A DNA stretch of 64,000 nucleotides, taken from positions 406,372 to 470,371 of the forward strand of contig JAXLZV010000001.1 of NCBI GenBank assembly GCA_046350755.1, in the 5' to 3' direction. This document shows positions 4,861 to 55,579 of the stretch, piece after piece; position 1 is the first letter of the stretch, and the number at the start of each line of letters is the position of its first letter. This DNA is from Candidatus Saccharimonadota bacterium. Lineage in GTDB: Bacteria; Patescibacteriota; Saccharimonadia; CAILAD01; GCA-016700035. The position numbers were made by a program, and so were the translations under genes. The notes beneath the pieces were generated by a model. That model searched no databases. It saw only the letters and a list, made by a program, of their open reading frames with translations, and had not been told where the DNA came from.

Positions 4861-5016
4861 CCATCGAAACAGTCGATCCTCGCGGTCGGCTTTTTCGATG
4901 GAGTAAACTCAGCTCGCCTAGCGATCAACTGATAGGCCGCCTTTCACGAACGAGATTGACAGTGCTTACGGCTCAGACTATCATCCGCTTAGTACCTTTA
5001 CGAAAGATGAGGCGCC

Positions 5017-37499: not shown

Positions 37500-38449
37500 A
37501 TGCCGCCACAACAGATCAAAACCTATCGTATGCTACATTCGAAGTGTTACAGTATGCCGTCACCCAAGACGGAGTAGATCCGGCCGATAGTAGCCATGAG
37601 ACCTTGGGTCTAAGTAAAACCGATAGAGATTTCGCCATCAAACAGCTTATTCATAAAGGATTGTTGCGTAAGACCGGCCGCATCCTCCGAGCCACCGCCG
37701 CCGCACAGTCGGCCCTCGAGCCATACCGAGTAAAGCGCGCCGTAATTTTAGCAGCCGGACGTGGTGAACGTCTGCGACCAGAAACCGACACTACCCCAAA
37801 ACCAATGGTACACGTACACAGTAGACGTCTCATCGAAACGCAGCTTGATGCTCTGGCCGCCGCTGGCATCCGTGACATCACAATTGTACGTGGGTATAAG
37901 GGCGAGCTGTTTGATGTGTTGTTGGAGACATATCCGCACATCAAGTTTATCGATAATCCTCGTTGGGACAGTACTGGAGAGATTATCTCGGCATCGTTAG
38001 TTATCGACTATCTCGCTGGCGCCTACCTCATCGAAGGTGATTTGTATATTCGCAACCCGGCCGTGCTGCGACCATACGAGTATCGCAGTTCATGGTGCGG
38101 AAAGCCCGGCGCGACCCACAATGACTGGTACTTTTCGGTCGACCAGAAGCAAAAAATTCACGCCCTCGCTTTTGGAAATACACAAGGTCAGCACGACTAC
38201 ACGTATGTTGGTATTGAATACTGGGCACCCCCAGAAGCCCGCCAGCTCAAGTTTGATCTGCAGACAGTATTACAAACTCCAGCTAACCAGCAAGGCTTTA
38301 TTGAATCTATCCCGTTTGATCCCATATATGGTACCTACAATATCTATGCCAGGCGATTGCTAGATGGTGATGTTACAGAAATCGACACACATGCAGAGCT
38401 GCTGGCATTGCGGGATCGTGAGCATCGCGAACCAGCTTTTCGGCCATAA
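37496..38449 (+). CDS. LicC-like nucleotidyltransferase with N-terminal extension (copy 2)
   Basis: Paralog of 33041-33973; AVILAAGRGERLRPETDTTPKPMV; divergent N-terminus FEVLQYAV...LSKTDRDFAIKQLIHKGLL (wHTH-like). Confidence 0.75.
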   Translation: MNAATTDQNLSYATFEVLQYAVTQDGVDPADSSHETLGLSKTDRDFAIKQLIHKGLLRKTGRILRATAAAQSALEPYRVKRAVILAAGRGERLRPETDTTPKPMVHVHSRRLIETQLDALAAAGIRDITIVRGYKGELFDVLLETYPHIKFIDNPRWDSTGEIISASLVIDYLAGAYLIEGDLYIRNPAVLRPYEYRSSWCGKPGATHNDWYFSVDQKQKIHALAFGNTQGQHDYTYVGIEYWAPPEARQLKFDLQTVLQTPANQQGFIESIPFDPIYGTYNIYARRLLDGDVTEIDTHAELLALRDREHREPAFRP

Positions 38450-38471
38450 CCTTTTCCCAGCACATATCTAT

Positions 38472-41400
38472 CTACAAAACTGATAGTTTTGTAGACGCGA
38501 GAGTGAGGCCAAGGCCTGCGAGGATGAGAGAGCCCATGGCGCAGAGATACGCCCAAGTACTCTCCCCCGTCCCCGCCAAACTCGTCGTCGCCAGTCCCAC
38601 GGGGTCCACAATCGTGCCATTAGCAGTGCCGTCTTGGTCAAGTGCTCCACCGTCAGTGATGGAATAAGTGAGTTTGACGGCGTGTTGGCCACCGATCGTG
38701 ACGTCGGTGAGGGCGGCTCCGGGAATATCTGAGTAGGTGCGACTGGTCGCATTGTACTTGCGAGCTGTGAATGAGTTTGCTCGCGCATCGGTATAGAAGT
38801 AGAGTTCTACGGGGATAGTAGCTCCTGGAGTCGTGGTAGCGGTGAAAGAGACGAAGCCTAGAGGATAGTCTTTCCCCTTATCTTGGGTTGAGAAGGAGCG
38901 AGCTTGTTCAATGATAGTGGCATCAATGGTGACACCATTCGGAACTACGAGGGTAATGTAGCGCCCGTCGGCATTGGGGAGTGACGTGACGTTAGATTGC
39001 TGAGCGTCTGGGGTGCCATCATTGTTACCGTCTCCATTGTTGGGAGCTGCGTTTTCGATGGTGTCGGGGATGGTGTCGGTGTCGGAGGAAGTAGGGGCAG
39101 CACCGTATATCAGATTAAAAATATTGTTAGAAGCTATTGAGTAAAGTGGCGTCCCAGTCTGAACAGCCTCAAATAAAGCCTGAATGTCCGGCTCTTGGTC
39201 AAAACTATCATGTATCAGCGCACCACGAAGAGTATTATTGCCTACTGCAAAGTCTGAGGTAGCAATCAGGCTTAAGCTTAAGGTCAGCTCAGTGGTGCTT
39301 GGGAGGACAGCATTACTAAATCGTACCTCGCAGATTACCAGATCTTCAGAGTAAGGAGCGAAGGCAGGAATGGAGTCTACTTGATTCATAGGACCAACAT
39401 CTGCACACCCAGTGGTATATAAATCATTGGGAGAAATAGAAACACTATCATATGTTGTATTGGTGGGAAGGTTGAAGTAAATAATTACTCCATCACCGGC
39501 AAAGTAACCAGGGCCAAGGTTCTTGAGATTCACTTCGTAGTTGGCAGTATCGCCGGATGTAATTGGTTGAGCATTGAGGAGTTTGGCGGTAAGACTGAGG
39601 TCGGTTTGCTCGGGACACGGCAGAGTGAAAGTTCGGTCTTCGCCATAGGCACGACCAGCTGAGTTTTCGGCATAAGCACGGTAATGATATGTGGTGCCAC
39701 ATGTAAGATCGTAAAGGTATGCATTACTATCCGTGTTAACCCCATAATAACTACCAGTACTCGTGGCGCCATAACTATTATCGAGGCCGTACTCGACACC
39801 AGTGCTGGGAATCTCATTACCTTCATCTGTGACCATATACTTAATTCTGGCAGAAGTACCTTGCGAGTTCTCGCGAGTGGCTGAGCCGGTATTGATAACT
39901 GGAAGGCTCGGGCAGGCGGATGTCGTAAAAGTTGCGTCATCCCCATAAGTTACAGCCTCATTGTTTATGGCGTAGGCGTGGTAATGATAAGTAGCGTTAC
40001 AATCCAAATCTGCAATATTAGCGCTGAAATCACCTGAGTTAGTTGTCTGGGTAAATATTTGGATTCGATTATATGTAGTATCGGACAGAATGAGTTGTCC
40101 TTGATTATTCATCGTTAGTCCAACAACGAAATCAAACCCACCAGCGCTCATTGTTTGCTGACCCCATTTGGTGATAAAAGTCCCACTTTCATCAAATATC
40201 TTCATGCGTCGGTTCTCCGTATCAGAAACAAACACATATCCTTGCGGACTTGTAGCCAAGCTTACGGGCAGAATAAACTGACTATCGCCTGAGCCCTGCG
40301 ATCCCCACTTGAGCATAAAGGCTCCATTGTTATCGAACTTTTGAACGCGATTATTGTTGCGATCAGCTACATAGAGATTATTTGAGGTATCAACAGCTAT
40401 CCCATACGGCAGATTAAACTGTCCATCATTACTCCCGAGAGTACCCCATTGGCTAACATATGATCCTGAGCTATTAAACTTCTGGATACGATTATTTTGA
40501 GTGTCGGCGACAAACATATTCCCATTTGAATCCACGGCAATGCCATAGGGGCTTGAGAGCTGTCCATTCCCAGACCCCGACGTGCCAAATTTGCTGATAA
40601 ACATTCCTGAGCTATTAAACTTCTGGATACGATTATTCGCGGTATCAACAACGTATATATTATTTGAAGAGTCGATTGCTAGACCTGTTGGGTTATCGAA
40701 CTGACCATCGCCCGAACCAGACGATCCCCATTGGGTTATATATGAGCCATTGCTATCAAACTTCTGGATACGATTATTATTACGATCAGCTACATAAATA
40801 TTATTTGAGGTGTCAGTGACGACTCCATAGGGGTGACTAAACTGACCATTAAGAGATGGATTGTGACCCCATTGCAAGAGATAGTTACCGCTGTTATCAA
40901 ACTTCTGAATGCGACCATTCTCATTATCACCAACGTATACATTGCCAGAAGAGTCTACCGTAATGCCGCGGGGCCCGGAGGCGAACTGATTATTACCTGT
41001 TCCGACAGACCCCCACTTGAGAATGAAGCTCCCGCTACTATCAAATTTTTGCACATTCGTACCATAAAGATCGAGCACAAAGATATTGCCCGAAGAATCT
41101 ACAACAAGGTTTATAGGTGCAATAAACTGACCATCGCCCGAACCAAAAGATCCCCATTTCAGAATAAAGGCACCATTGCTGGTAAATTTTTGGATACGTC
41201 GATTATCAATATCAACTACATACACGTTATTAGATGAGTCGATAGCTAGGTCAACAATGCTTCCAAATTGCCCATCACCACTGCCCTGCGACCCCCATTG
41301 GGTAAGTAAATTATCATTTGCATCATATTTCTTGATAGTGTGATTATTCGAATCGGCAACATAGATATTATTGGCAGAGTCCACTGTAATACAGCCGGTG

Positions 41401-41951
41401 GCAATATTCAGCTGACGAATAAATGAACCTGATGAATCGTATTTATAGATATGCTGTGAATAACCATCAACAACATACACATTATCCAGCGAGTCCACGG
41501 CTATACAGTTGATAGTGCTAAAGACATTAATGTCTCCCCATGCGGTAATAAAATTCCCAGAAGAATCAAATTTTTGGATACGCCGGTTGTAACTGTCAGC
41601 TGTATAGACATTACCGTTACTGTCGGTTGCAACATCGGTAGCAAACATAAACTGCCCTTGAGCACTTGGGTCATTGCCCCACTGCTTCAAGTATGGATAA
41701 TTTACTGGTACATCTTCATCGGCACTATTGGTATATGTGTTAGTCAAGCCATACTCAAACCCGCGCTTCGTAATCGGACTCGTACCGGCACTGGGTGCTG
41801 AGCCATTGAGAGTTCCCGAGTTCGCGCTTAGATTAGTAGCATTGTTGGTAGTGACGGTCGGAGCCGCGGCATGAGCATGACTTGCGAGTGCGAGTGTGGC
41901 GATGGCTGCAAAGGTTAGCACTGAGAAGGCTTTGGTGAGTTTGGTCATCAT
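38472..41951 (-). CDS. giant NHL-repeat beta-propeller surface protein (1159 aa), variant C-terminal module + LAGTG sorting signal
   Basis: Signal peptide near-identical to that of 26890-29193; many YVADRNNNRIQKFD repeats; LAGTG-TM. Confidence 0.8.
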   Translation of the reverse strand: MMTKLTKAFSVLTFAAIATLALASHAHAAAPTVTTNNATNLSANSGTLNGSAPSAGTSPITKRGFEYGLTNTYTNSADEDVPVNYPYLKQWGNDPSAQGQFMFATDVATDSNGNVYTADSYNRRIQKFDSSGNFITAWGDINVFSTINCIAVDSLDNVYVVDGYSQHIYKYDSSGSFIRQLNIATGCITVDSANNIYVADSNNHTIKKYDANDNLLTQWGSQGSGDGQFGSIVDLAIDSSNNVYVVDIDNRRIQKFTSNGAFILKWGSFGSGDGQFIAPINLVVDSSGNIFVLDLYGTNVQKFDSSGSFILKWGSVGTGNNQFASGPRGITVDSSGNVYVGDNENGRIQKFDNSGNYLLQWGHNPSLNGQFSHPYGVVTDTSNNIYVADRNNNRIQKFDSNGSYITQWGSSGSGDGQFDNPTGLAIDSSNNIYVVDTANNRIQKFNSSGMFISKFGTSGSGNGQLSSPYGIAVDSNGNMFVADTQNNRIQKFNSSGSYVSQWGTLGSNDGQFNLPYGIAVDTSNNLYVADRNNNRVQKFDNNGAFMLKWGSQGSGDSQFILPVSLATSPQGYVFVSDTENRRMKIFDESGTFITKWGQQTMSAGGFDFVVGLTMNNQGQLILSDTTYNRIQIFTQTTNSGDFSANIADLDCNATYHYHAYAINNEAVTYGDDATFTTSACPSLPVINTGSATRENSQGTSARIKYMVTDEGNEIPSTGVEYGLDNSYGATSTGSYYGVNTDSNAYLYDLTCGTTYHYRAYAENSAGRAYGEDRTFTLPCPEQTDLSLTAKLLNAQPITSGDTANYEVNLKNLGPGYFAGDGVIIYFNLPTNTTYDSVSISPNDLYTTGCADVGPMNQVDSIPAFAPYSEDLVICEVRFSNAVLPSTTELTLSLSLIATSDFAVGNNTLRGALIHDSFDQEPDIQALFEAVQTGTPLYSIASNNIFNLIYGAAPTSSDTDTIPDTIENAAPNNGDGNNDGTPDAQQSNVTSLPNADGRYITLVVPNGVTIDATIIEQARSFSTQDKGKDYPLGFVSFTATTTPGATIPVELYFYTDARANSFTARKYNATSRTYSDIPGAALTDVTIGGQHAVKLTYSITDGGALDQDGTANGTIVDPVGLATTSLAGTGESTWAYLCAMGSLILAGLGLTLASTKLSVL

Positions 41952-45862: not shown

Positions 45863-45873
45863 GCTTCGTCTGG

Positions 45874-45946
45874 TGGCTGCGGGTGGAATCGAACCACCGA
45901 CCTTTGGCTTATGAGTCCACTGCTCTAACCCCTGAGCTACGCAGCC
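45874..45946 (-). tRNA. tRNA-Met-like (anticodon CAU, elongator type) with non-canonical anticodon stem
   Basis: GGCUGCG acceptor, D and T arms intact, loop CUCAUAA; anticodon stem GUGGA/GCCAA has only 3 central pairs; encoded CCA. Confidence 0.6.
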
Positions 45947-46037
45947 ATGTACTGTATTATATAACGCTCAAGAGCCTTATGATGTGTTTTTCTACCTATA
46001 TGCAAATGCCCCAGACTAGCTGAGGCGCTTGCTTTGG

Positions 46038-46110
46038 TAGCGGGGGTAGGACTCGAACCTACGACCTTCAGGTTATGAGCCTGACGAGCTGCCAACTGCT
46101 CCACCCCGCG
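46038..46110 (-). tRNA. initiator tRNA-fMet (CAU)
   Basis: CGCGGGGUGGAGCAG...CUCAUAA...CCCCCGCUACCA; near-identical to E. coli tRNA-fMet, with 1-72 mismatch (C-U). Confidence 0.85.
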
Positions 46111-50231: not shown

Positions 50232-50304
50232 TGGGCCCGTAGCTCAGTGGTTAGAGCAGTCGGCTCATAACCGATTGGCCGCTGGTTCAAATCCAGCCGG
50301 GCCC
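50232..50304 (+). tRNA. tRNA-Ile2 (CAU, lysidine-modified) or tRNA-Met
   Basis: GGGCCCGUAGCUCAGUGGUUAGAGCAGUCGGCUCAUAACCGAUUGGCCGCUGGUUCAA.UCCAGC; closely resembles E. coli tRNA-Ile2; tilS present in window. Confidence 0.8.
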
Positions 50305-50322
50305 ACCACTTCACTGAATCAT

Positions 50323-51189
50323 ATGAAAATTACCAAAGCCATCATTCCGGCCGCTGGATTGGGTACGAGATTTCTCCCCCAGACCAAGGCTATGCCTAAA
50401 GAAATGCTGCCGATTATCGACAAGCCGGTGATCCAGTACGTCGTTGAAGAAGCGGTCGCCGCTGGCATCACCGATATTATTATTGTTACCGGCCAGCATA
50501 AGCGAGCCATCGAAGACCACTTTGACCACCAATACGCGCTAGAGGCCGAACTACGCCAAAAAGGTAAGACGGCAGTCGCTGACGAACTCGAGCGGATTGC
50601 CGACATGGCAAACTTTATCTATATCCGTCAGAAGGGCAACTACGGCAATGGCACGCCCATCCTCAATGCCGCCCACCTGGTTGATGACGAGCCTTTCTTA
50701 GTGCTGTGGGCGGATGACTTCGTCCGGGCGGCAAAACCACGGGCTCTGCAGCTGGTTGAAGCGTATGCGAAGCTTCAAAGCCCAGTCATATCGCTTATCC
50801 CCATCCAATCAGCTGATGCCGATAAATATGGCGTACCAGCGATCAAGCAGGAGCTTGCACCGGACTTATTTGAGATAGATAAGCTGATCGAGAAGCCTGG
50901 CAGCGCAGCCGCGCCTTCCAGTTATGGTTCGGTTGGAGGCTACATTCTCACACCCGACATCATTCCTCTGCTCGAGGCACAGAAGCCGGATAAGACTGGT
51001 GAGATCTATCTCTCGACCGCTATCGACCAGCTCGCTGCGCAACGTTCAGTCTACGGTAAAGTGATTGCTGGAGAATGGCATGATACCGGTAGTAAGATGA
51101 GCTATCTGGAAGCTATCATTGACGTGGCGCTTGAAGACGAGACGATTGGCCCTGAGCTGCGCAGCTTCCTCAAGAAAAAGCTCAGCTAG
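50323..51189 (+). CDS. galU: UTP--glucose-1-phosphate uridylyltransferase
   Basis: KAIIPAAGLGTRFLPQTKAMPKEMLP...; start at MKITKA. Confidence 0.85.
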   Translation: MKITKAIIPAAGLGTRFLPQTKAMPKEMLPIIDKPVIQYVVEEAVAAGITDIIIVTGQHKRAIEDHFDHQYALEAELRQKGKTAVADELERIADMANFIYIRQKGNYGNGTPILNAAHLVDDEPFLVLWADDFVRAAKPRALQLVEAYAKLQSPVISLIPIQSADADKYGVPAIKQELAPDLFEIDKLIEKPGSAAAPSSYGSVGGYILTPDIIPLLEAQKPDKTGEIYLSTAIDQLAAQRSVYGKVIAGEWHDTGSKMSYLEAIIDVALEDETIGPELRSFLKKKLS

Positions 51190-51202
51190 ACCGCCTAATA
51201 TA

Positions 51203-51232
51203 TTGACATTGTAGCTTTAATATGTTTATAAT
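51203..51232 (+). promoter_or_regulatory. near-consensus sigma70 promoter
   Basis: TTGACA-N18-TATAAT. Confidence 0.5.
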
Positions 51233-51239
51233 AACCCGT

Positions 51240-51670
51240 CGTCGAATGTATTCGACGTGTACCTGGAGACATCTACTGCCACGGACCTTCGCACCCGCGA
51301 AGATTACGTCCGCCTTCAAACGAAATGCCATTCACTGGCTCTCGTTCTCGCAAGTGAGAACCCGATCGCTATCCGCCCTCGGACCCCTCTCACTCGCAAT
51401 TTTGCACACTTGATCTGACGCTCTACACTAGTCGGTCACGTGCCGGCAGTATGAGCGCTCCAGAGAGTGCAAACTACGTCCAGCTGGACTGAAGCTCGCT
51501 TTTGCTACCACTTTGCCACTCGGCAGACGTGAGCGCATCAGCACTCGTCCATTCTCTGCGTGACACTGTCCCGCCCTCCAGGCCTCGGCTTGGAAACACG
51601 AGAATAGCCTGGGCACGACCCACGGAAAAGACCCTCACGGTCTCGTTTCCGTGGGTCTTTCCATTTATAT
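51240..51670 (+). ncRNA. candidate structured ncRNA (~430 nt, identity unresolved; RNase P RNA is the most length-compatible guess)
   Basis: No credible ORF on either strand; bounded by a consensus promoter and a strong terminator; multiple nested hairpins (GTTCTC-gcaagt-GAGAAC, CCAGGC..CTCG..CGAG..GCCTGG). Confidence 0.35.
51617..51666 (+). terminator. intrinsic terminator (12-bp stem with nested inner hairpin)
   Basis: GACCCACGGAAA-(AGACC-ctcac-GGTCT)-cg-TTTCCGTGGGTC then TTTCCATTTATATT. Confidence 0.5.
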
Positions 51671-51698
51671 TGACTTATACAGATAAAATACGCATAAT
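51670..51698 (+). promoter_or_regulatory. candidate sigma70 promoter for the 51730 gene
   Basis: TTGACT-N17-CATAAT; GAGGAG RBS before ATG 51730. Confidence 0.4.
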
Positions 51699-51729
51699 AT
51701 CAGCACCTTTCGTACCTTGAGGAGTCAGA

Positions 51730-52263
51730 ATGACACTGGAACGAATTGACGCCGTCTGTGGACGACCTTTTCGGGCGTTCCTCCATGGCCTGTGCTACGT
51801 AACTGGCCGGTCGAATTTCTTCTTTGCCCGACTTGCACTCCTGAGTGGGTTCATCAGCTTTGCAAGCTATGCAGCTGTCACTCGATCATGGCCATTTGGT
51901 ATTTTTACCGCAATGTTCGCGGTCATTGTCGCTGCAGAACTCATCAACTACGCGCTTGCCGAACAGCAGCTCAAGCAAAGCTCCGGTGACATTTTGCCAA
52001 GCTTCTTGGCAAATAAGATCAATTTTCGTCGTATCAGTCGCGTCGGCGCCCTGGGTGTTGTCTGCTTGAATATCGGAATTTCCCTAGTAGATAGAAGAAA
52101 TATTCTGCTCATAATCGCCTGGTTGTCAGACGCGGCGATGTTGTATTTTTCCGAATATATCACGCCCCGCGGTAAAAGCCTCTTCCGTCGCGCAGTCGAT
52201 TGGGCAAAGTCACACGCACCGAGCTTCAATCTGAACCCTGCCCCTCGACCCGAAATCGCCTAG
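51730..52263 (+). CDS. integral membrane protein
   Basis: 4 predicted TM helices; no recognised motifs. Confidence 0.5.
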   Translation: MTLERIDAVCGRPFRAFLHGLCYVTGRSNFFFARLALLSGFISFASYAAVTRSWPFGIFTAMFAVIVAAELINYALAEQQLKQSSGDILPSFLANKINFRRISRVGALGVVCLNIGISLVDRRNILLIIAWLSDAAMLYFSEYITPRGKSLFRRAVDWAKSHAPSFNLNPAPRPEIA

Positions 52264-52268
52264 TGCGT

Positions 52269-52301
52269 CACCCCATCCTTACCGATGGGGTGTAATTTTT
52301 T
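52269..52301 (+). terminator. intrinsic terminator of the 51730-52263 gene
   Basis: CACCCCATC-cttacc-GATGGGGTG-TAATTTTTT. Confidence 0.5.
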
Positions 52302-52305
52302 GAAC

Positions 52306-52338
52306 ACAAAAAAGCCTCGCATGAACGAGGCCCTTTTG
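52306..52338 (-). terminator. intrinsic terminator of the PA-rich gene (possibly bidirectional)
   Basis: Minus strand GGGCCUCG-uucau-GCGAGGC-UUUUUU. Confidence 0.5.
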
Positions 52339-52352
52339 CTTGAGTACAAAAT

Positions 52353-52577
52353 TTACGCGGCTGGGGTAGCAGGATCAGCTGGGGCTGGTGCTGGAGTGCC
52401 TTCGACAGCTTGCTCAGTAGTAGGCTCAGCAGCTGGGGCTGGAGCATCAGGCGCTGGGGCAGCTGGCGTAGTTGGTGCAGTTGGTGCAGCTGGTGCAGCT
52501 GGGGCTGGAGCATCAGGCTGAGTAACCGTTCCTGGGGTTGGTGCAGCTGGTGCTGGCTGGTTTATTGCATCATCCAT
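52353..52577 (-). CDS. small Pro/Ala-rich low-complexity protein
   Basis: TATAAT and AAAGGAGA RBS upstream of ATG; (PAPAAP)n composition. Confidence 0.4.
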
Positions 52578-52652
52578 AATCTATCTCCTTTAAGTATTGT
52601 TGATTATAAGCTTAGTATATCAGCTTGCGTACAGATATTGCTACCTAATACC

Positions 52653-52676
52653 AAAAACCCGCCTGACGGCGGGCTT
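52653..52676 (-). terminator. intrinsic terminator of the 52696-52908 gene
   Basis: Minus strand AGCCCGCC-GUCA-GGCGGGUU-UUUGG. Confidence 0.5.
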
Positions 52677-52695
52677 GGTGATTTCAAGTGAGGGT

Positions 52696-52908
52696 CTAGC
52701 CCTTCTTGAGAATTGGCAAACCGGTGCGAGTGTTCTCTACAACGATGTAACCTTCTGGAAGCGCATCAATTACGCCTTCCTTCTCTTCACGGGCAAAAAA
52801 GTAAATCCGCTGCTGCCGACCACCCTTGAGGGTCACGTCGCGCTGGTGCAGAAAATACTTTTGACCTTTTGAATTCGTGTGCTCGTAAGCCATATTCTTG
52901 TTCCTCAC
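52696..52908 (-). CDS. small hypothetical protein (70 aa)
   Basis: ORF flanked by its own terminator; MAYEHTNSKGQKYFLHQRDVTLKGG. Confidence 0.45.
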   Translation of the reverse strand: MRNKNMAYEHTNSKGQKYFLHQRDVTLKGGRQQRIYFFAREEKEGVIDALPEGYIVVENTRTGLPILKKG

Positions 52909-53073
52909 TCCTTATTAATAGTTATGGTTCCAGGTTAGGCCAGGTTGGCTCACCTGTCAACACCTTCGGCAGATTTTTTTTAATTTTCTCGGAGGAATAA
53001 CCTGGGTTTGATAGTCCTCGCCAAACCCCTTACAATAGATGAGATACTAGTGAAGAACTTAAACGGAGGCTCC

Positions 53074-53589
53074 ATGGAACAACCCCCTCGCCGCCCTGCG
53101 GCGCCCCAAGCACGACCAGCTAATCAGGCACCAGCGGCAGCTCACCAGCCAGCTCCCAAGAAGTCACGCAGCCAACTACTCGGCTGGTTTGCGCTGGTCA
53201 TCGCGATTTTTGTCATCACTGGACTGGTTTTTCTGGCAACTTCGATGTTTAGTAAGGCCCAGTCTGGCAGCCAGATCGATGTCAAGAAGAGTCAGTATCA
53301 GGCCGTATTCCTGAATAATAACCAGGTTTACTTCGGACGCATCACCAGCATCACTGATAAGGGCATTACTCTCAAAGACGTCTACTACCTACAAGTTCAG
53401 CAAAATGCCCAGGGCAGCACCGATCCAAAGGCTCAAAACCAGCAGCAGAACCTGTCTCTGGCCAAGCTCGGTGGCGAGCTCCATGGCCCAGAAGATCAGA
53501 TGTTCATCAATCGGGACCAAGTACTCTTCTGGGAAAACCTCAAGGATGACGGGAAAGTCGTTCAAGCGATTAAGAGCAATCAAAAATAG
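53074..53589 (+). CDS. membrane-anchored hypothetical protein with Pro/Ala/Gln-rich N-terminus
   Basis: GGAGGC RBS before ATG 53074; single TM then soluble domain. Confidence 0.5.
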   Translation: MEQPPRRPAAPQARPANQAPAAAHQPAPKKSRSQLLGWFALVIAIFVITGLVFLATSMFSKAQSGSQIDVKKSQYQAVFLNNNQVYFGRITSITDKGITLKDVYYLQVQQNAQGSTDPKAQNQQQNLSLAKLGGELHGPEDQMFINRDQVLFWENLKDDGKVVQAIKSNQK

Positions 53590-53667
53590 TCTCTAAAACC
53601 CAGCTCAGCAAGACTTTAAAGCCGGCCTCAAGCCGGTTTTAAAGTTGGCAGCCGTTCATCGGTCAGG

Positions 53668-54846
53668 CTAGGTCGATTTCTTCTTCGTGCGTAATGCCGT
53701 CTGACCACCGAGCGGCGTAAGCCCTCGGCTCATCAATATACCCAAACCTACCAAGAAGAGAGCCAAGCTCACCAGGCCACCAACAAATGGTACTAGTCCG
53801 ATAATGGCAGCGATCAGAAAGCCAACGCCAGCGGCGGCAACTTCTTGACCATAGCTCAATCGCATGTGCCGGGTAGCTTCAGTACCCTTTGCCTGCAAGC
53901 GCCACACCAAGCGGCCAAGCCAGTGGGCGGCAGCGGTTGGCGCCAATACTAATGTCAGAATATAGATTAGACCCAAAATTAGCATCAGAGGAATCCCAAT
54001 GATTGTAAACAGACCCAACACGATACCAATCGGCACCAAGAAGAGGAAAGCCGAAGCTTTAAGAATATTGTTCAATGGCTGCTGAGCAAATGCATCTTCC
54101 GCGGGGAGTAAGAGCTTAGGCGCAAATCGCAGTACCACCGCCGCCAGCAAGATATTGGCAACTAGCCAATAAAAAGTTTCTGCCAGACGCGCCATAAAGC
54201 GATCAGCTGCGCTGGGTTGTGGTGTTGAAACCCGCGAAATCGAACCGGCTACGGCTCGGTCGTTGGCGACCGTTGCTGGTTGATCTGAGGCGTATTTCAA
54301 GTTACCGTCAATTTGCGCTTTGTCGGTGATCCTAATTTGGCCACCAGCAAGGCTGGCATTTTGCTGAATTTTCGCCGAGACCTCTACCTGTGAGCCAGCC
54401 GCGTACAAACCACCAGAGTATTCGCCGGCGGCAGAGACCGTACTGCCCGCCATAAAGGCATTGTTGGCGCGAGCTGAAGCCTCAGTCGTCACTTTCATGC
54501 CAGCCAAGAAAAGCGTGCCCTCTGTCCGGCCTGAATATATAACTTCGGAGGCCGCCGCATGAATATTGCCTTTGACAGGACCATTGATACGAACGGTGTC
54601 CCCCACAGCATACACACTGCCGTTCACGGTGCCATTAATAGTCACGTCACTGCCGGCCACGATCACATCACCATCTACCGTTCCATCGATATTGATAGAT
54701 TCAGCCGAACGCATGAATAGCCCGCTAAAGGTGGAATCCTTAGCCACTTCAGCTTTAGAGTCAAGCTTGGCAGCACGAGCGACACCAAAACCTGCGAGCG
54801 CGCACACAACCAATACTATCAGCAGCACTATCGAGAAACGCTTCAT
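53668..54846 (-). CDS. membrane protein with N-terminal beta-helical repeat domain (bactofilin/DUF4097-like) and C-terminal polytopic domain
   Basis: Repeats VDGDVIVAGSDVTINGTVNGSVYAVGDTVRINGPVKGNI; C-terminal half hydrophobic; start assumed at MKRFSIV. Confidence 0.5.
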   Translation of the reverse strand: MKRFSIVLLIVLVVCALAGFGVARAAKLDSKAEVAKDSTFSGLFMRSAESINIDGTVDGDVIVAGSDVTINGTVNGSVYAVGDTVRINGPVKGNIHAAASEVIYSGRTEGTLFLAGMKVTTEASARANNAFMAGSTVSAAGEYSGGLYAAGSQVEVSAKIQQNASLAGGQIRITDKAQIDGNLKYASDQPATVANDRAVAGSISRVSTPQPSAADRFMARLAETFYWLVANILLAAVVLRFAPKLLLPAEDAFAQQPLNNILKASAFLFLVPIGIVLGLFTIIGIPLMLILGLIYILTLVLAPTAAAHWLGRLVWRLQAKGTEATRHMRLSYGQEVAAAGVGFLIAAIIGLVPFVGGLVSLALFLVGLGILMSRGLTPLGGQTALRTKKKST

Positions 54847-54885
54847 ATTTCTTATTAAACGCCGAAACTCTACAAAACACAAGCC

Positions 54886-54915
54886 TTGACACGTTCGTAC
54901 GCTGTTCGTTATTAT
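54886..54915 (+). promoter_or_regulatory. lexA promoter with embedded direct-repeat operator candidate
   Basis: -35 TTGACA, -10 TATTAT; GTTC-gtacgct-GTTC (54893-54907) between them; AAGGAGGG RBS. Confidence 0.45.
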
Positions 54916-54946
54916 GGTAGCAAAGCAGGATATTTAAGGAGGGATC

Positions 54947-55579
54947 ATGATACGCAAGCCACTCACGAAGAAACAAAAGCGAACACTCGACTATGTGTCG
55001 TCGTTTATTGAGCAGCACGGCTACTCACCAAGTTATCGCGAGATTGCTAATGGCCTCAAGCTTAACTCTGTAGCTACCGTAGCTCAACACATCGATTCAC
55101 TCGTCTCTAAAGGACTACTTACAAAGGGCAATAATTCTGCCCGCTCCTTATTACCAGTTGGCGAAGTTGAATCTTCAACAATTATTGAAAGTGGCATGCG
55201 ACTACCAATTCTTGGCTTGATCGCTGCCGGAACACCGATTGAAACTGTTTCCGGACATCCCGATACCCTTGAAGTCCCCCCTTTCATGGTCGGCAAGCGC
55301 AATAGCTATGTACTACAAGTCAAAGGTCAATCGATGATTAACGACGGCATTCATAATGGTGACTTTGTGGTAGTGCAAGAAAAAGAGACCCCATCGAATG
55401 GCGAAGTCGTTGTAGCACTGATCAATGGCTCCGAAGCTACCCTCAAACGCTACTATAAAGAAGCCGGCCGCATTCGACTGCAGCCCGCTAATGATTCTAT
55501 GGACCCGATCTACATTACACCCGACATGGATTTACAGATTCAGGGTGTAGTCATCGGCCTGATTCGCAAATATAGCTAA
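54947..55579 (+). CDS. lexA: LexA repressor
   Basis: N-terminal wHTH; S24 peptidase with GQSM (Ser) and LKRY (Lys) catalytic dyad. Confidence 0.9.
   Translation: MIRKPLTKKQKRTLDYVSSFIEQHGYSPSYREIANGLKLNSVATVAQHIDSLVSKGLLTKGNNSARSLLPVGEVESSTIIESGMRLPILGLIAAGTPIETVSGHPDTLEVPPFMVGKRNSYVLQVKGQSMINDGIHNGDFVVVQEKETPSNGEVVVALINGSEATLKRYYKEAGRIRLQPANDSMDPIYITPDMDLQIQGVVIGLIRKYS

Follow-up and report, generated by a model that had tools for sequence, protein, structure and literature searches.

A probable gene for a large structured noncoding RNA, outside the known RNA families, in a small clade of Saccharibacteria

The DNA examined here, hereafter the window, is a stretch of 64,000 nucleotides (nt; 64 kb) from a Candidatus Saccharimonadota bacterium (assembly GCA_046350755.1, contig JAXLZV010000001.1, positions 406,372 to 470,371), and the element of interest lies in the 540-nt gap between galU and ORF177, an open reading frame (ORF) encoding an orphan protein of 177 amino acids (aa). 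Within this gap, the + strand interval from 51238 to about 51666 is probably a gene in its own right, encoding a structured noncoding RNA (ncRNA) of some 425 nt whose family lies outside Rfam. The interval possesses its own conserved promoter and terminator, contains no conserved reading frame and displays compensatory changes in the first of its two predicted domains, as a stand-alone ncRNA gene should. The RNA belongs to a new family of a known general kind, the large orphan structured ncRNAs of bacteria, and as far as public data show it is restricted to three Saccharibacteria lineages, namely the clade of the window and those represented by L126 and L135 (L-numbers designate loci or contigs from public assemblies or from a metagenome scan). 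Its transcription, the ends of the transcript and any function are what we infer from these data. A preliminary description of the window had proposed an independent, ORF-free and structured unit that is not simply a 5' untranslated region, and this proposal is borne out by the conservation of the interval, its substitution pattern, the orthologous unit of L135 and the compensatory changes reported below.

The predicted promoter of the unit, promoter P1 (51203-51232, + strand), combines the -35 hexamer TTGACA (51203-51208) and the -10 hexamer TATAAT (51227-51232) across an 18-nt spacer. It was the top-scoring site of the promoter scan and, with 12 of 12 consensus positions, the sole perfect match in 64 kb, where 0.03 would be expected from shuffled sequences; its earlier designation as the best promoter of the window was therefore correct. 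It begins 13-14 nt past the galU stop codon (TAG, 51187-51189), the earlier figure being 14 nt, and no galU terminator precedes it. The two hexamers are unchanged in all 10 haplotypes compared and the spacer is variable, while L135 carries TTGACT-18-TATAAT (11/12) at the equivalent place. Transcription is predicted from the sequence to start at the G at position 51238, 6 nt past the -10 hexamer, and the ACCC-GUCG found at this predicted start is identical in the window and in L135. At the other end, the terminator scan, the fold and the comparison with L126 and L135 all designate a 3' hairpin followed by a U-rich tail (51617-51666) as an intrinsic-terminator-like end of the RNA. The 12-bp stem already reported (51617-51628/51646-51657) is extended by an inner stem of 5 bp (51629-51633/51639-51643), so that the hairpin spans 51617-51657, and is followed by UUUCCAUUU; because this U-tract is interrupted, it is weaker than the tracts of nearby terminators. 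The sequence of the hairpin stem is nevertheless 92-100% kept across all three RNA-bearing lineages. The second promoter of the preliminary description was also recovered by the scan, as promoter-like site P2 (TTGACT-17-CATAAT, 51670-51698, + strand, 10/12) ahead of ORF177. Non-homologous promoter-like sites, all of them consensus matches, occupy the gap between terminator and ORF in L135 (9/12, by scan) and in L126 (10/12, by eye) as well.

The interval is noncoding. The earlier statement that it holds no ORF of at least 60 aa with a ribosome-binding site (RBS) stands only under the RBS condition, since a mechanical ORF list contains frames of 53-72 aa on both strands. Every ORF of at least 50 aa in the interval is interrupted in some strain by a natural deletion of 1 nt, at 51361 or at 51519, the small ORFs have no match in Pfam, PHROGs or PADLOC, and the window and L135 copies of the RNA have no ORF in common.

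Within the clade of the window, copies were gathered via the flanking proteins: 20 full-length copies from public assemblies and one from the metagenome scan, amounting to nine distinct haplotypes and including three sub-lineages (window, L104 and L091). A suspicion of repeats or strain variability, raised by contigs starting inside the element, was dismissed as the sequences match and these are ordinary low-coverage contig ends. Between the window and L091, the RNA differs at 9 of 427 positions (2.1%) and the four-fold degenerate sites of the flanking genes at 153 of 674 (22.7%; Fisher p 2e-25); across the versions of this comparison, four-fold divergence ranges from 21.6 to 22.7%, with p from 1e-22 to 2e-25 against the 2.1% of the RNA. 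The two other sub-lineage comparisons oppose 0.5% in the RNA to 17.8% at four-fold sites, and 1.9% to 9.4%. The dip in divergence starts and stops at the predicted transcript ends, and the 49-nt promoter block accumulates six differences between the window and L091, none of which falls in the hexamers. Where the RNA does vary, the fold of the + strand leaves 9 of 12 polymorphic sites unpaired, against a paired fraction of 65% among all bases (binomial p 0.005). The interval is thus under strong constraint.

The folding prediction is equally distinctive. The + strand reaches a minimum free energy of -169.3 kcal/mol, equivalent to z = -7.67 relative to shuffled sequences (z = -6.23 for the - strand), which makes the interval the strongest folding outlier among 148 windows sampled at the 429-nt scale on both strands, the runner-up having a z of -4.7. 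The density of hairpins noted in the preliminary description is accordingly beyond chance. Mean pair probability lies between 0.8 and 1.0 in nearly all helices. At the 200-nt scale, the + strand signal is weak to modest, and the structure therefore depends on long-range pairs. The RNA is C-rich (C 33%, G 23%), as is its L135 copy (C 32%, G 23.5%). It opens with a 5' terminal hairpin of 7 bp with a UGUA loop (51240-51257), identified from the fold and from the comparison with L135, where three of its pairs have changed on both sides (U-A to C-G, C-G to U-A and G-C to U-G). Domain I (51258-51471) follows, in which the long-range stems P1 (51258-51268/51458-51471) and P2 (51274-51280/51445-51451) enclose a junction of four hairpins: P3 (51282-51312), P4 (51319-51346), P5 (51350-51397) and P6 (51404-51443). 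This architecture is indicated by the fold, the pair probabilities, L135 and the covariance model R2 described below. The apical loop of P5, GCUAUCCGC (51368-51376), closed by CCGA/UCGG, is the longest mostly unpaired block identical in the window and L135 and hence a candidate functional site for ligand or protein contact. Also conserved in both is GGCAGUAU.AGCGCUC (51445-51460), which covers the conserved 3' strands of stems P2 and P1 and the intervening junction. Domain II (51478-51614), predicted from the fold and the comparison with L126, has a closing stem (51478-51483/51609-51614) and two arms (51486-51550 and 51551-51605). All these elements are on the + strand. The next folding outliers of the window, with z of about -4.5 to -4.7, are located at 52238-52437 (-), which spans the convergent terminators of ORF177 and orf74, and at 39226-39654 (+) and 38368-38796 (-), both inside an ORF of 1159 aa (38472-41951).

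The most informative relative is L135, which was located through its exactly conserved 65-aa neighbour orf70 and whose flanks are about 74% identical to those of the window. Its gene order is tRNA-Met, terminator, the promoter given above, a 395-nt RNA with the same 3' hairpin, a promoter-like site and an ORF177 homolog of 174 aa. Folded alone, the L135 RNA (z -4.76) recovers the topology of the window, with a 5' hairpin, stems P1 and P2 around a four-hairpin junction, a closed second domain with two arms and the terminator. Model R2, a covariance model of the 5' hairpin and domain I built from the window clade only, retrieved L135 over its full length (32.5 bits, E 2e-8) as its sole match in 876 kb. 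In the R2-guided alignment of the window and L135, 97.6% of the cells are standard pairs, overall identity in domain I is 64.6%, and 13 of the 74 pairs, distributed over 7 of the 12 helices, have changed on both sides; shuffles gave a mean of 3.2, none of the 500 reaching 13, and slid registers gave 0-2. The covariation that the preliminary description proposed to look for in related sequences is thus present, as is the conservation in related genomes. The blocks conserved between the two sequences are GAGACAU, ACUGCC, GUUCUC, GCUAUCCGC, GUCGGUC, GGCAGUAU.AGCGCUC and the whole 3' hairpin. In L126, identity to the window reaches 90.5% over the 210 nt at the 3' end of the RNA (model R1, 111 bits), even though the DNA of ORF177 is unalignable. 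Domain II, 90% identical there, has changed in 5 of 98 paired as opposed to 11 of 42 unpaired columns (Fisher p 8e-4). Its evidence, which comes from the placement of substitutions alone, is weaker than that for domain I.

Searches for further copies delimit the family narrowly. Neither blastn nor nhmmer detected a homolog of the candidate in 80 galU loci of GTDB species. The RNA is missing from the syntenic gap of L092, whose GalU is 82% identical, and from the rearranged relatives L093-L103, the galU relatives L092-L103 being 78-82% identical. Models R1 and R2 found nothing in 0.82-0.88 Mb of other Patescibacteria loci, the search being confined to loci rather than whole genomes. Phage and plasmid records gave no blastn match and three pattern scans of viral contigs gave 0 matches, while a 20-mer scan of metagenomes returned one true copy (L123) and six chance matches in GC-rich coding DNA. 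The conserved terminator block was judged a better scan pattern than the 20-mer used, and CACGGTCTCNTTTCCGTGGGTCTTTCC and GCTATCCGCC may serve as seed sequences for family searches, as an alternative to an Infernal model built from the window, L126 and L135.

Comparison with known families leaves the RNA without an assignment. At the gathering score, Rfam 15 detects four tRNAs only in the whole window, and at E<=10 it has no match on 51100-51800; in the L135 copy, it returns the upstream tRNA and sub-threshold noise, with no RNA-family match at E<=10. ARAGORN likewise lists four tRNAs and no transfer-messenger RNA (tmRNA), a molecule marked by a tRNA-like domain and a tag reading frame, in the window. 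The length of the unit had first suggested RNase P RNA (RF00010/RF00011), an identification contradicted by the lack of any Rfam match at either threshold in the window or L135 to models that include the P4 pseudoknot and conserved regions CR-I to CR-V, by the absence of the RNA from the syntenic site of L092 and by its confinement to three narrow lineages; the latter two observations also imply that it is not a universal housekeeping RNA. The companion statements, that RNase P RNA was not seen elsewhere in the 64-kb window and that tmRNA (RF00023) was less likely, agree with the four tRNAs found and with both programs. The other families named for checking gave no match either: 6S RNA (RF00013) and the RNA of the signal recognition particle (SRP; RF00169, RF01854) were discarded at E<=10 in the window and L135, and the predicted fold, with its two multi-branched domains, is unlike the 6S rod with its large central bubble. 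OLE, GOLLD, ROOL, raiA, HEARO and the other large ncRNA classes of Rfam 15 are excluded as far as covariance models can tell. Of the fallbacks initially offered, a novel small RNA (sRNA) is the reading that survives, and a long leader or riboswitch persists as a minority rival for the next gene, with no match to a known aptamer family.

The gene that follows the RNA, ORF177 (51730-52263, + strand), encodes a putative helical membrane protein, as judged from sequence, HMMER searches and an AlphaFold model. This model is confident (pLDDT 87) and consists of a bundle of helices only, the stretches 53-77 and 102-120 being the most hydrophobic; Pfam, NCBIfam, PADLOC and sequence and fold searches of the PDB provided no lead. 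A co-oriented gene of this family stands next after the RNA in all three RNA-bearing lineages, while the upstream neighbour is galU in the window and tRNA-Met in L135. HMMER retrieved remote homologs at 22-39% identity, which gave access to the L126 and L135 lineages, and the family, with 18 representatives at E<1e-3 and lengths of about 165-185 aa, has conserved ends around a hypervariable core, the N-terminal motif being LCxxTG(R/K)SNFFFA and the C-terminal one YF..P(R/P)xKS..RRA..W..H. Codon positions 1+2 differ by 6.5% in ORF177 against 0.7% in galU; the L126 homolog has 35% protein identity, and its core is unalignable at the DNA level between flanks that are 84-90% identical. Family members lie at L126:282-803, L135:4337-4861 (-), L125:3843-4367 and L137:10001-11141, and those of L125 and the tandem paralogs of L137 have no RNA. 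The leaders of the family (window 51704-51729; L135, reverse complement of about 4862-4945; L126:240-281; L125:3800-3842) have (U)UCG(C/U)ACCU in common, a short distance 5' of the RBS, the RNA-less L125 included. The 5' strand of RNA stem P1 resembles the ORF177 leader of the same lineage. In L135, the leader shows complementarity to the conserved 3' strands of P2 and P1, with P 0.02 when the L135 strand is taken and <0.001 when that of the window is taken, and pairing between RNA and leader in the window is not above chance (P 0.31, 28 of 40 other leaders being as good).

A number of points count against a stand-alone RNA gene, or limit what can be said of it. Both strands of the interval fold well, because the + strand structure holds just 5 G.U pairs out of 140. 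The RNA is nonetheless assigned to the + strand, since promoter and terminator are found on that strand only, in the window and in L135, and since changes creating G.U pairs are tolerated there: in domain II of L126, two changes give G.U on the + strand (an A.C mismatch on the - strand) against one change of the opposite kind, a C-to-U change in the L126 3' hairpin yields U.G on the + strand (by eye), and the register taken from the L135 fold displays a series A-U, G.U, G-C at the base of P6 (by eye). The covariation rests on essentially one divergent sequence, L135, whose alignment was guided by a model derived from the window's own fold and is thereby biased toward structure, although the independent fold agrees. 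Domain II presents no double, compensatory changes, and that of L135 is not recognized by model R1 even with the filters off; L135 still has a closed two-arm domain at this position. The strains are mosaic over 50323-55300, L104 resembling the window as far as about 52400 and being almost the same as L091 from about 52500 onward, so that part of the low divergence of the RNA could stem from a recombination tract, and a second block of low divergence (52523-53122, 0-2 differences per 100 nt in all strain comparisons) lies nearby. The promoter, start and 3' end of the RNA are consensus predictions, and the imperfect U-tract of the terminator makes read-through into ORF177, hence a leader role, possible. 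Finally, with a distribution of three lineages, function is not inferable from context statistics.

The main rival is precisely such a role: a long cis-acting leader of ORF177, similar to a riboswitch or attenuator, in which a sensor of some 380 nt would decide whether transcripts from promoter P1 stop at the hairpin or read through. The constant position of the RNA immediately 5' of an ORF177-family gene read in the same direction would be explained in this manner, as would the distance of just 64 nt from tail to ATG, a terminator more conserved than simple termination requires, the imperfect U-tract and the ability of the L135 leader to pair with the conserved 3' strands of P2 and P1 (P 0.02). 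We nonetheless regard a leader as distinctly unlikely. A promoter-like site separates terminator and ORF in all three lineages (L126 by eye), the ORF177 homologs of L125 and L137 manage without the RNA, and constraint on the RNA greatly exceeds that on the gene that it would regulate. No conserved antiterminator was found, the candidates in the window (51591-51599 with 51655-51663; CCACGGA at 51278) having no counterpart in L135 by eye; pairing between RNA and leader in the window is at chance level (P 0.31; 28 of 40 other leaders equal it), and no known aptamer family matches. Action in trans through base pairing, as a regulator or sponge whose G-free, C-rich loops (ACCCC, UAUCCGCC, CUCAC, CCUUCA) would bind Shine-Dalgarno regions, appears quite improbable. 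The C-rich motifs of RsaE/RoxS-type sRNAs do pair with G-rich Shine-Dalgarno regions of mRNAs, and the C-rich, G-poor composition of the RNA in both the window and L135, with predicted accessible segments that are G-free and CCCUC occurring four times, would suit such a mode. G-free loops, however, follow automatically from the folding of a G-poor sequence, and selection spans the whole 425 nt and the helices rather than a short seed. Among the loop motifs only GCUAUCCGC is kept in L135, the 41 translation-initiation regions of the window include no outstanding target, and 425 nt with two closed domains are atypical of seed-type sRNAs.

The remaining alternatives fare worse. A non-functional origin, be it a decayed gene remnant such as a dead tandem paralog of ORF177 or a DNA-level element whose low divergence reflects a recent recombination tract, is very improbable. 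It could draw on the tandem ORF177 paralogs of L137, the mosaic strains, the 9-nt direct repeat TATATTGAC that flanks the unit and the resemblance of the RNA start to the ORF177 leader. Yet the hidden Markov model (HMM) of the ORF177 family finds nothing in any frame (E > 0.6), on which ground the dead paralog was rejected, and tblastn matches are scattered on both strands; moreover, each of the three pairwise comparisons shows constraint that does not extend past the transcript ends, compensatory changes keep the helices across lineages about 35% diverged in domain I, and promoter hexamers and terminator are kept in all lineages. It is hardly credible that ORF177 is a toxin and the RNA its antitoxin in a type III-like toxin-antitoxin or abortive-infection pair. 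The gene order, with a terminator between RNA and ORF, mimics ToxIN-type loci, and ORF177, itself hypervariable, occupies a variable islet beside a tRNA, but the RNA has no tandem repeats (0 rows in Tandem Repeats Finder at score 30; only scattered pairs of 9-12 nt) and ORF177 is a helical membrane protein rather than an endoribonuclease of the ToxN/AbiQ type, with no Pfam, PADLOC or PDB fold match. ORF177 homologs also exist without the RNA, which an unneutralized toxin should not tolerate. Were the unit instead a diverged universal housekeeping RNA (RNase P RNA, tmRNA, 6S or SRP), its length of about 430 nt would suit RNase P RNA, and the strong promoter and the lack of any such RNA at other places in the 64-kb window would agree with it, but a window of this size is expected to miss most housekeeping RNAs anyway. 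Given the absence of an Rfam match at E<=10 in the window or L135 and of a tmRNA by ARAGORN, the failure to find the RNA at the L092 syntenic site or in about 0.88 Mb of further Patescibacteria loci, and a domain II that is not conserved between lineages with 74% identical flanks, this alternative is effectively refuted.

Under the favored reading of a stand-alone gene, the RNA would be transcribed from a consensus sigma-70-type promoter and would begin with a protective 5' hairpin, continue with two closed multi-helix domains and end in a long sequence-conserved 3' hairpin doubling as intrinsic terminator. Selection within a small Saccharibacteria clade maintains its sequence and fold, and the RNA and the hypervariable ORF177 directly 3' of it form a conserved two-gene arrangement. 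Such a stand-alone, two-domain RNA is probably abundant, and its role is probably tied to ORF177. Tentatively, and with slightly less than even confidence, we suggest that it acts as a stable protein-binding or scaffold RNA, through its fold and not as a short antisense seed or a riboswitch; the protein-binding part of this suggestion is putative. Action through the fold is favored over seed antisense because the whole length, the helices, the apical loop and the 3' hairpin are under selection. More speculative, and unlikely, is the proposal that the RNA and ORF177 constitute a new two-component module of Saccharibacteria in which a conserved, abundant, folded RNA would cooperate with or control a diversifying membrane or surface protein, for example in phage exclusion or in interaction with the host cell.

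The surroundings of the unit deserve a brief description. Its 5' neighbour in the window, galU (50323-51189, + strand; Pfam NTP_transferase, E 8e-32), encodes UTP-glucose-1-phosphate uridylyltransferase, and the nearest GalU proteins all come from metagenome-assembled genomes (MAGs) of Saccharibacteria/Patescibacteria; the locus is also present in the NCBI MAG GCA_041910075.1. Three tRNA-Met (CAU) genes occur inside 4.5 kb, at 45871-45946, 46035-46110 and 50233-50308, the third of which (+ strand; Rfam and ARAGORN) is the one found 5' of the RNA in L135, where it immediately precedes the unit with its own terminator and without an intervening galU. In L092 (2881-3629; GalU 82% identical), the RNA and ORF177 are replaced by a - strand ORF of about 115 aa, Thr/Pro-rich and secreted-looking, which indicates that the site 3' of galU is a variable islet. 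The exact direct repeat TATATTGAC is located at 51199-51207 and 51666-51674, with a -35 element in each copy; it may have arisen by promoter duplication, as the target-site duplication of an insertion, or by chance. Further downstream, the second low-divergence block (52523-53122) takes in orf70 (-) and the 5' end of orf74 (-), together with two intergenic regions. The 65-aa protein of orf70 has no family assignment and is identical even in L135, despite flank identity of about 74%. The - strand gene orf74 (52353-52577) encodes a Pro/Ala-rich, low-complexity protein of 74 aa, ranging from 74 to 80 aa among strains, and contains a hypervariable, indel-rich segment (52423-52522) with 47-52 differences per 100 nt between strains. 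The product of orf171 (53074-53589) matches PycTM models of PADLOC weakly (E 0.002-0.017), probably on account of transmembrane helices alone.

Saccharibacteria genomes measure about 1 Mb and have little spare DNA. In so small a genome, the retention of some 425 nt of noncoding sequence at a conservation ten times that of silent codon positions implies that the sequence is truly functional. Few large structured ncRNAs of unassigned role are known, and time and again such RNAs have opened up new biology; several large ncRNAs are also multimeric. In the literature searched, no large structured ncRNA of this kind has been described for bacteria of the candidate phyla radiation (CPR). If the proposal above is true, the RNA-ORF177 module would establish, in CPR bacteria with their reduced genomes, a new functional class of large ncRNA. 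The narrow distribution tempers this significance, while constraint in a minimal genome, clear boundaries and a fixed partner raise it.

Among known systems, the type III toxin-antitoxin loci (ToxIN, CptIN, TenpIN) offer a similar succession of promoter, noncoding RNA, terminator and an ORF of about 170 aa, ToxIN-type loci being arranged as promoter, RNA, terminator and toxin gene; the present RNA differs in that it is not a tandem repeat array, and ORF177 is a membrane protein without a ToxN-like fold. Long leaders such as T-boxes and riboswitches also combine a promoter, a structured RNA, a conserved terminator and a co-oriented gene, here 64 nt downstream. Unlike them, this locus has a promoter-like site between terminator and gene in all lineages, its RNA has roughly double the length of a usual leader, neither aptamer or specifier features of known types nor a conserved antiterminator were found in it, and homologs of the downstream gene exist without it. 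RNase P RNA (RF00010/RF00011) shares the similar length (about 400 nt), the two domains and the strong promoter, whereas this RNA has no covariance-model match, is missing from the syntenic site of close relatives and is unconserved over half of the molecule. The closest resemblance is to OLE, GOLLD, ROOL, raiA and HEARO, which likewise extend over several hundred nt, adopt multi-domain folds with compensatory changes, conserve loop and junction sequences and are encoded by stand-alone genes. GOLLD and ROOL are often reported near tRNA genes in variable regions, and the present RNA is likewise close to a tRNA gene in a variable region. It departs from these classes by the lack of a match to their Rfam models (E<=10), by the lack of copies in the viral contigs and the phage and plasmid records searched, by a far narrower distribution, three Saccharibacteria lineages so far, and by its fixed partnership with one family of protein genes. 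Small as it is, the family is directly testable, since its ends are defined, a secondary structure can be put to the test, loop motifs are conserved and its partner gene always comes from the same protein family.

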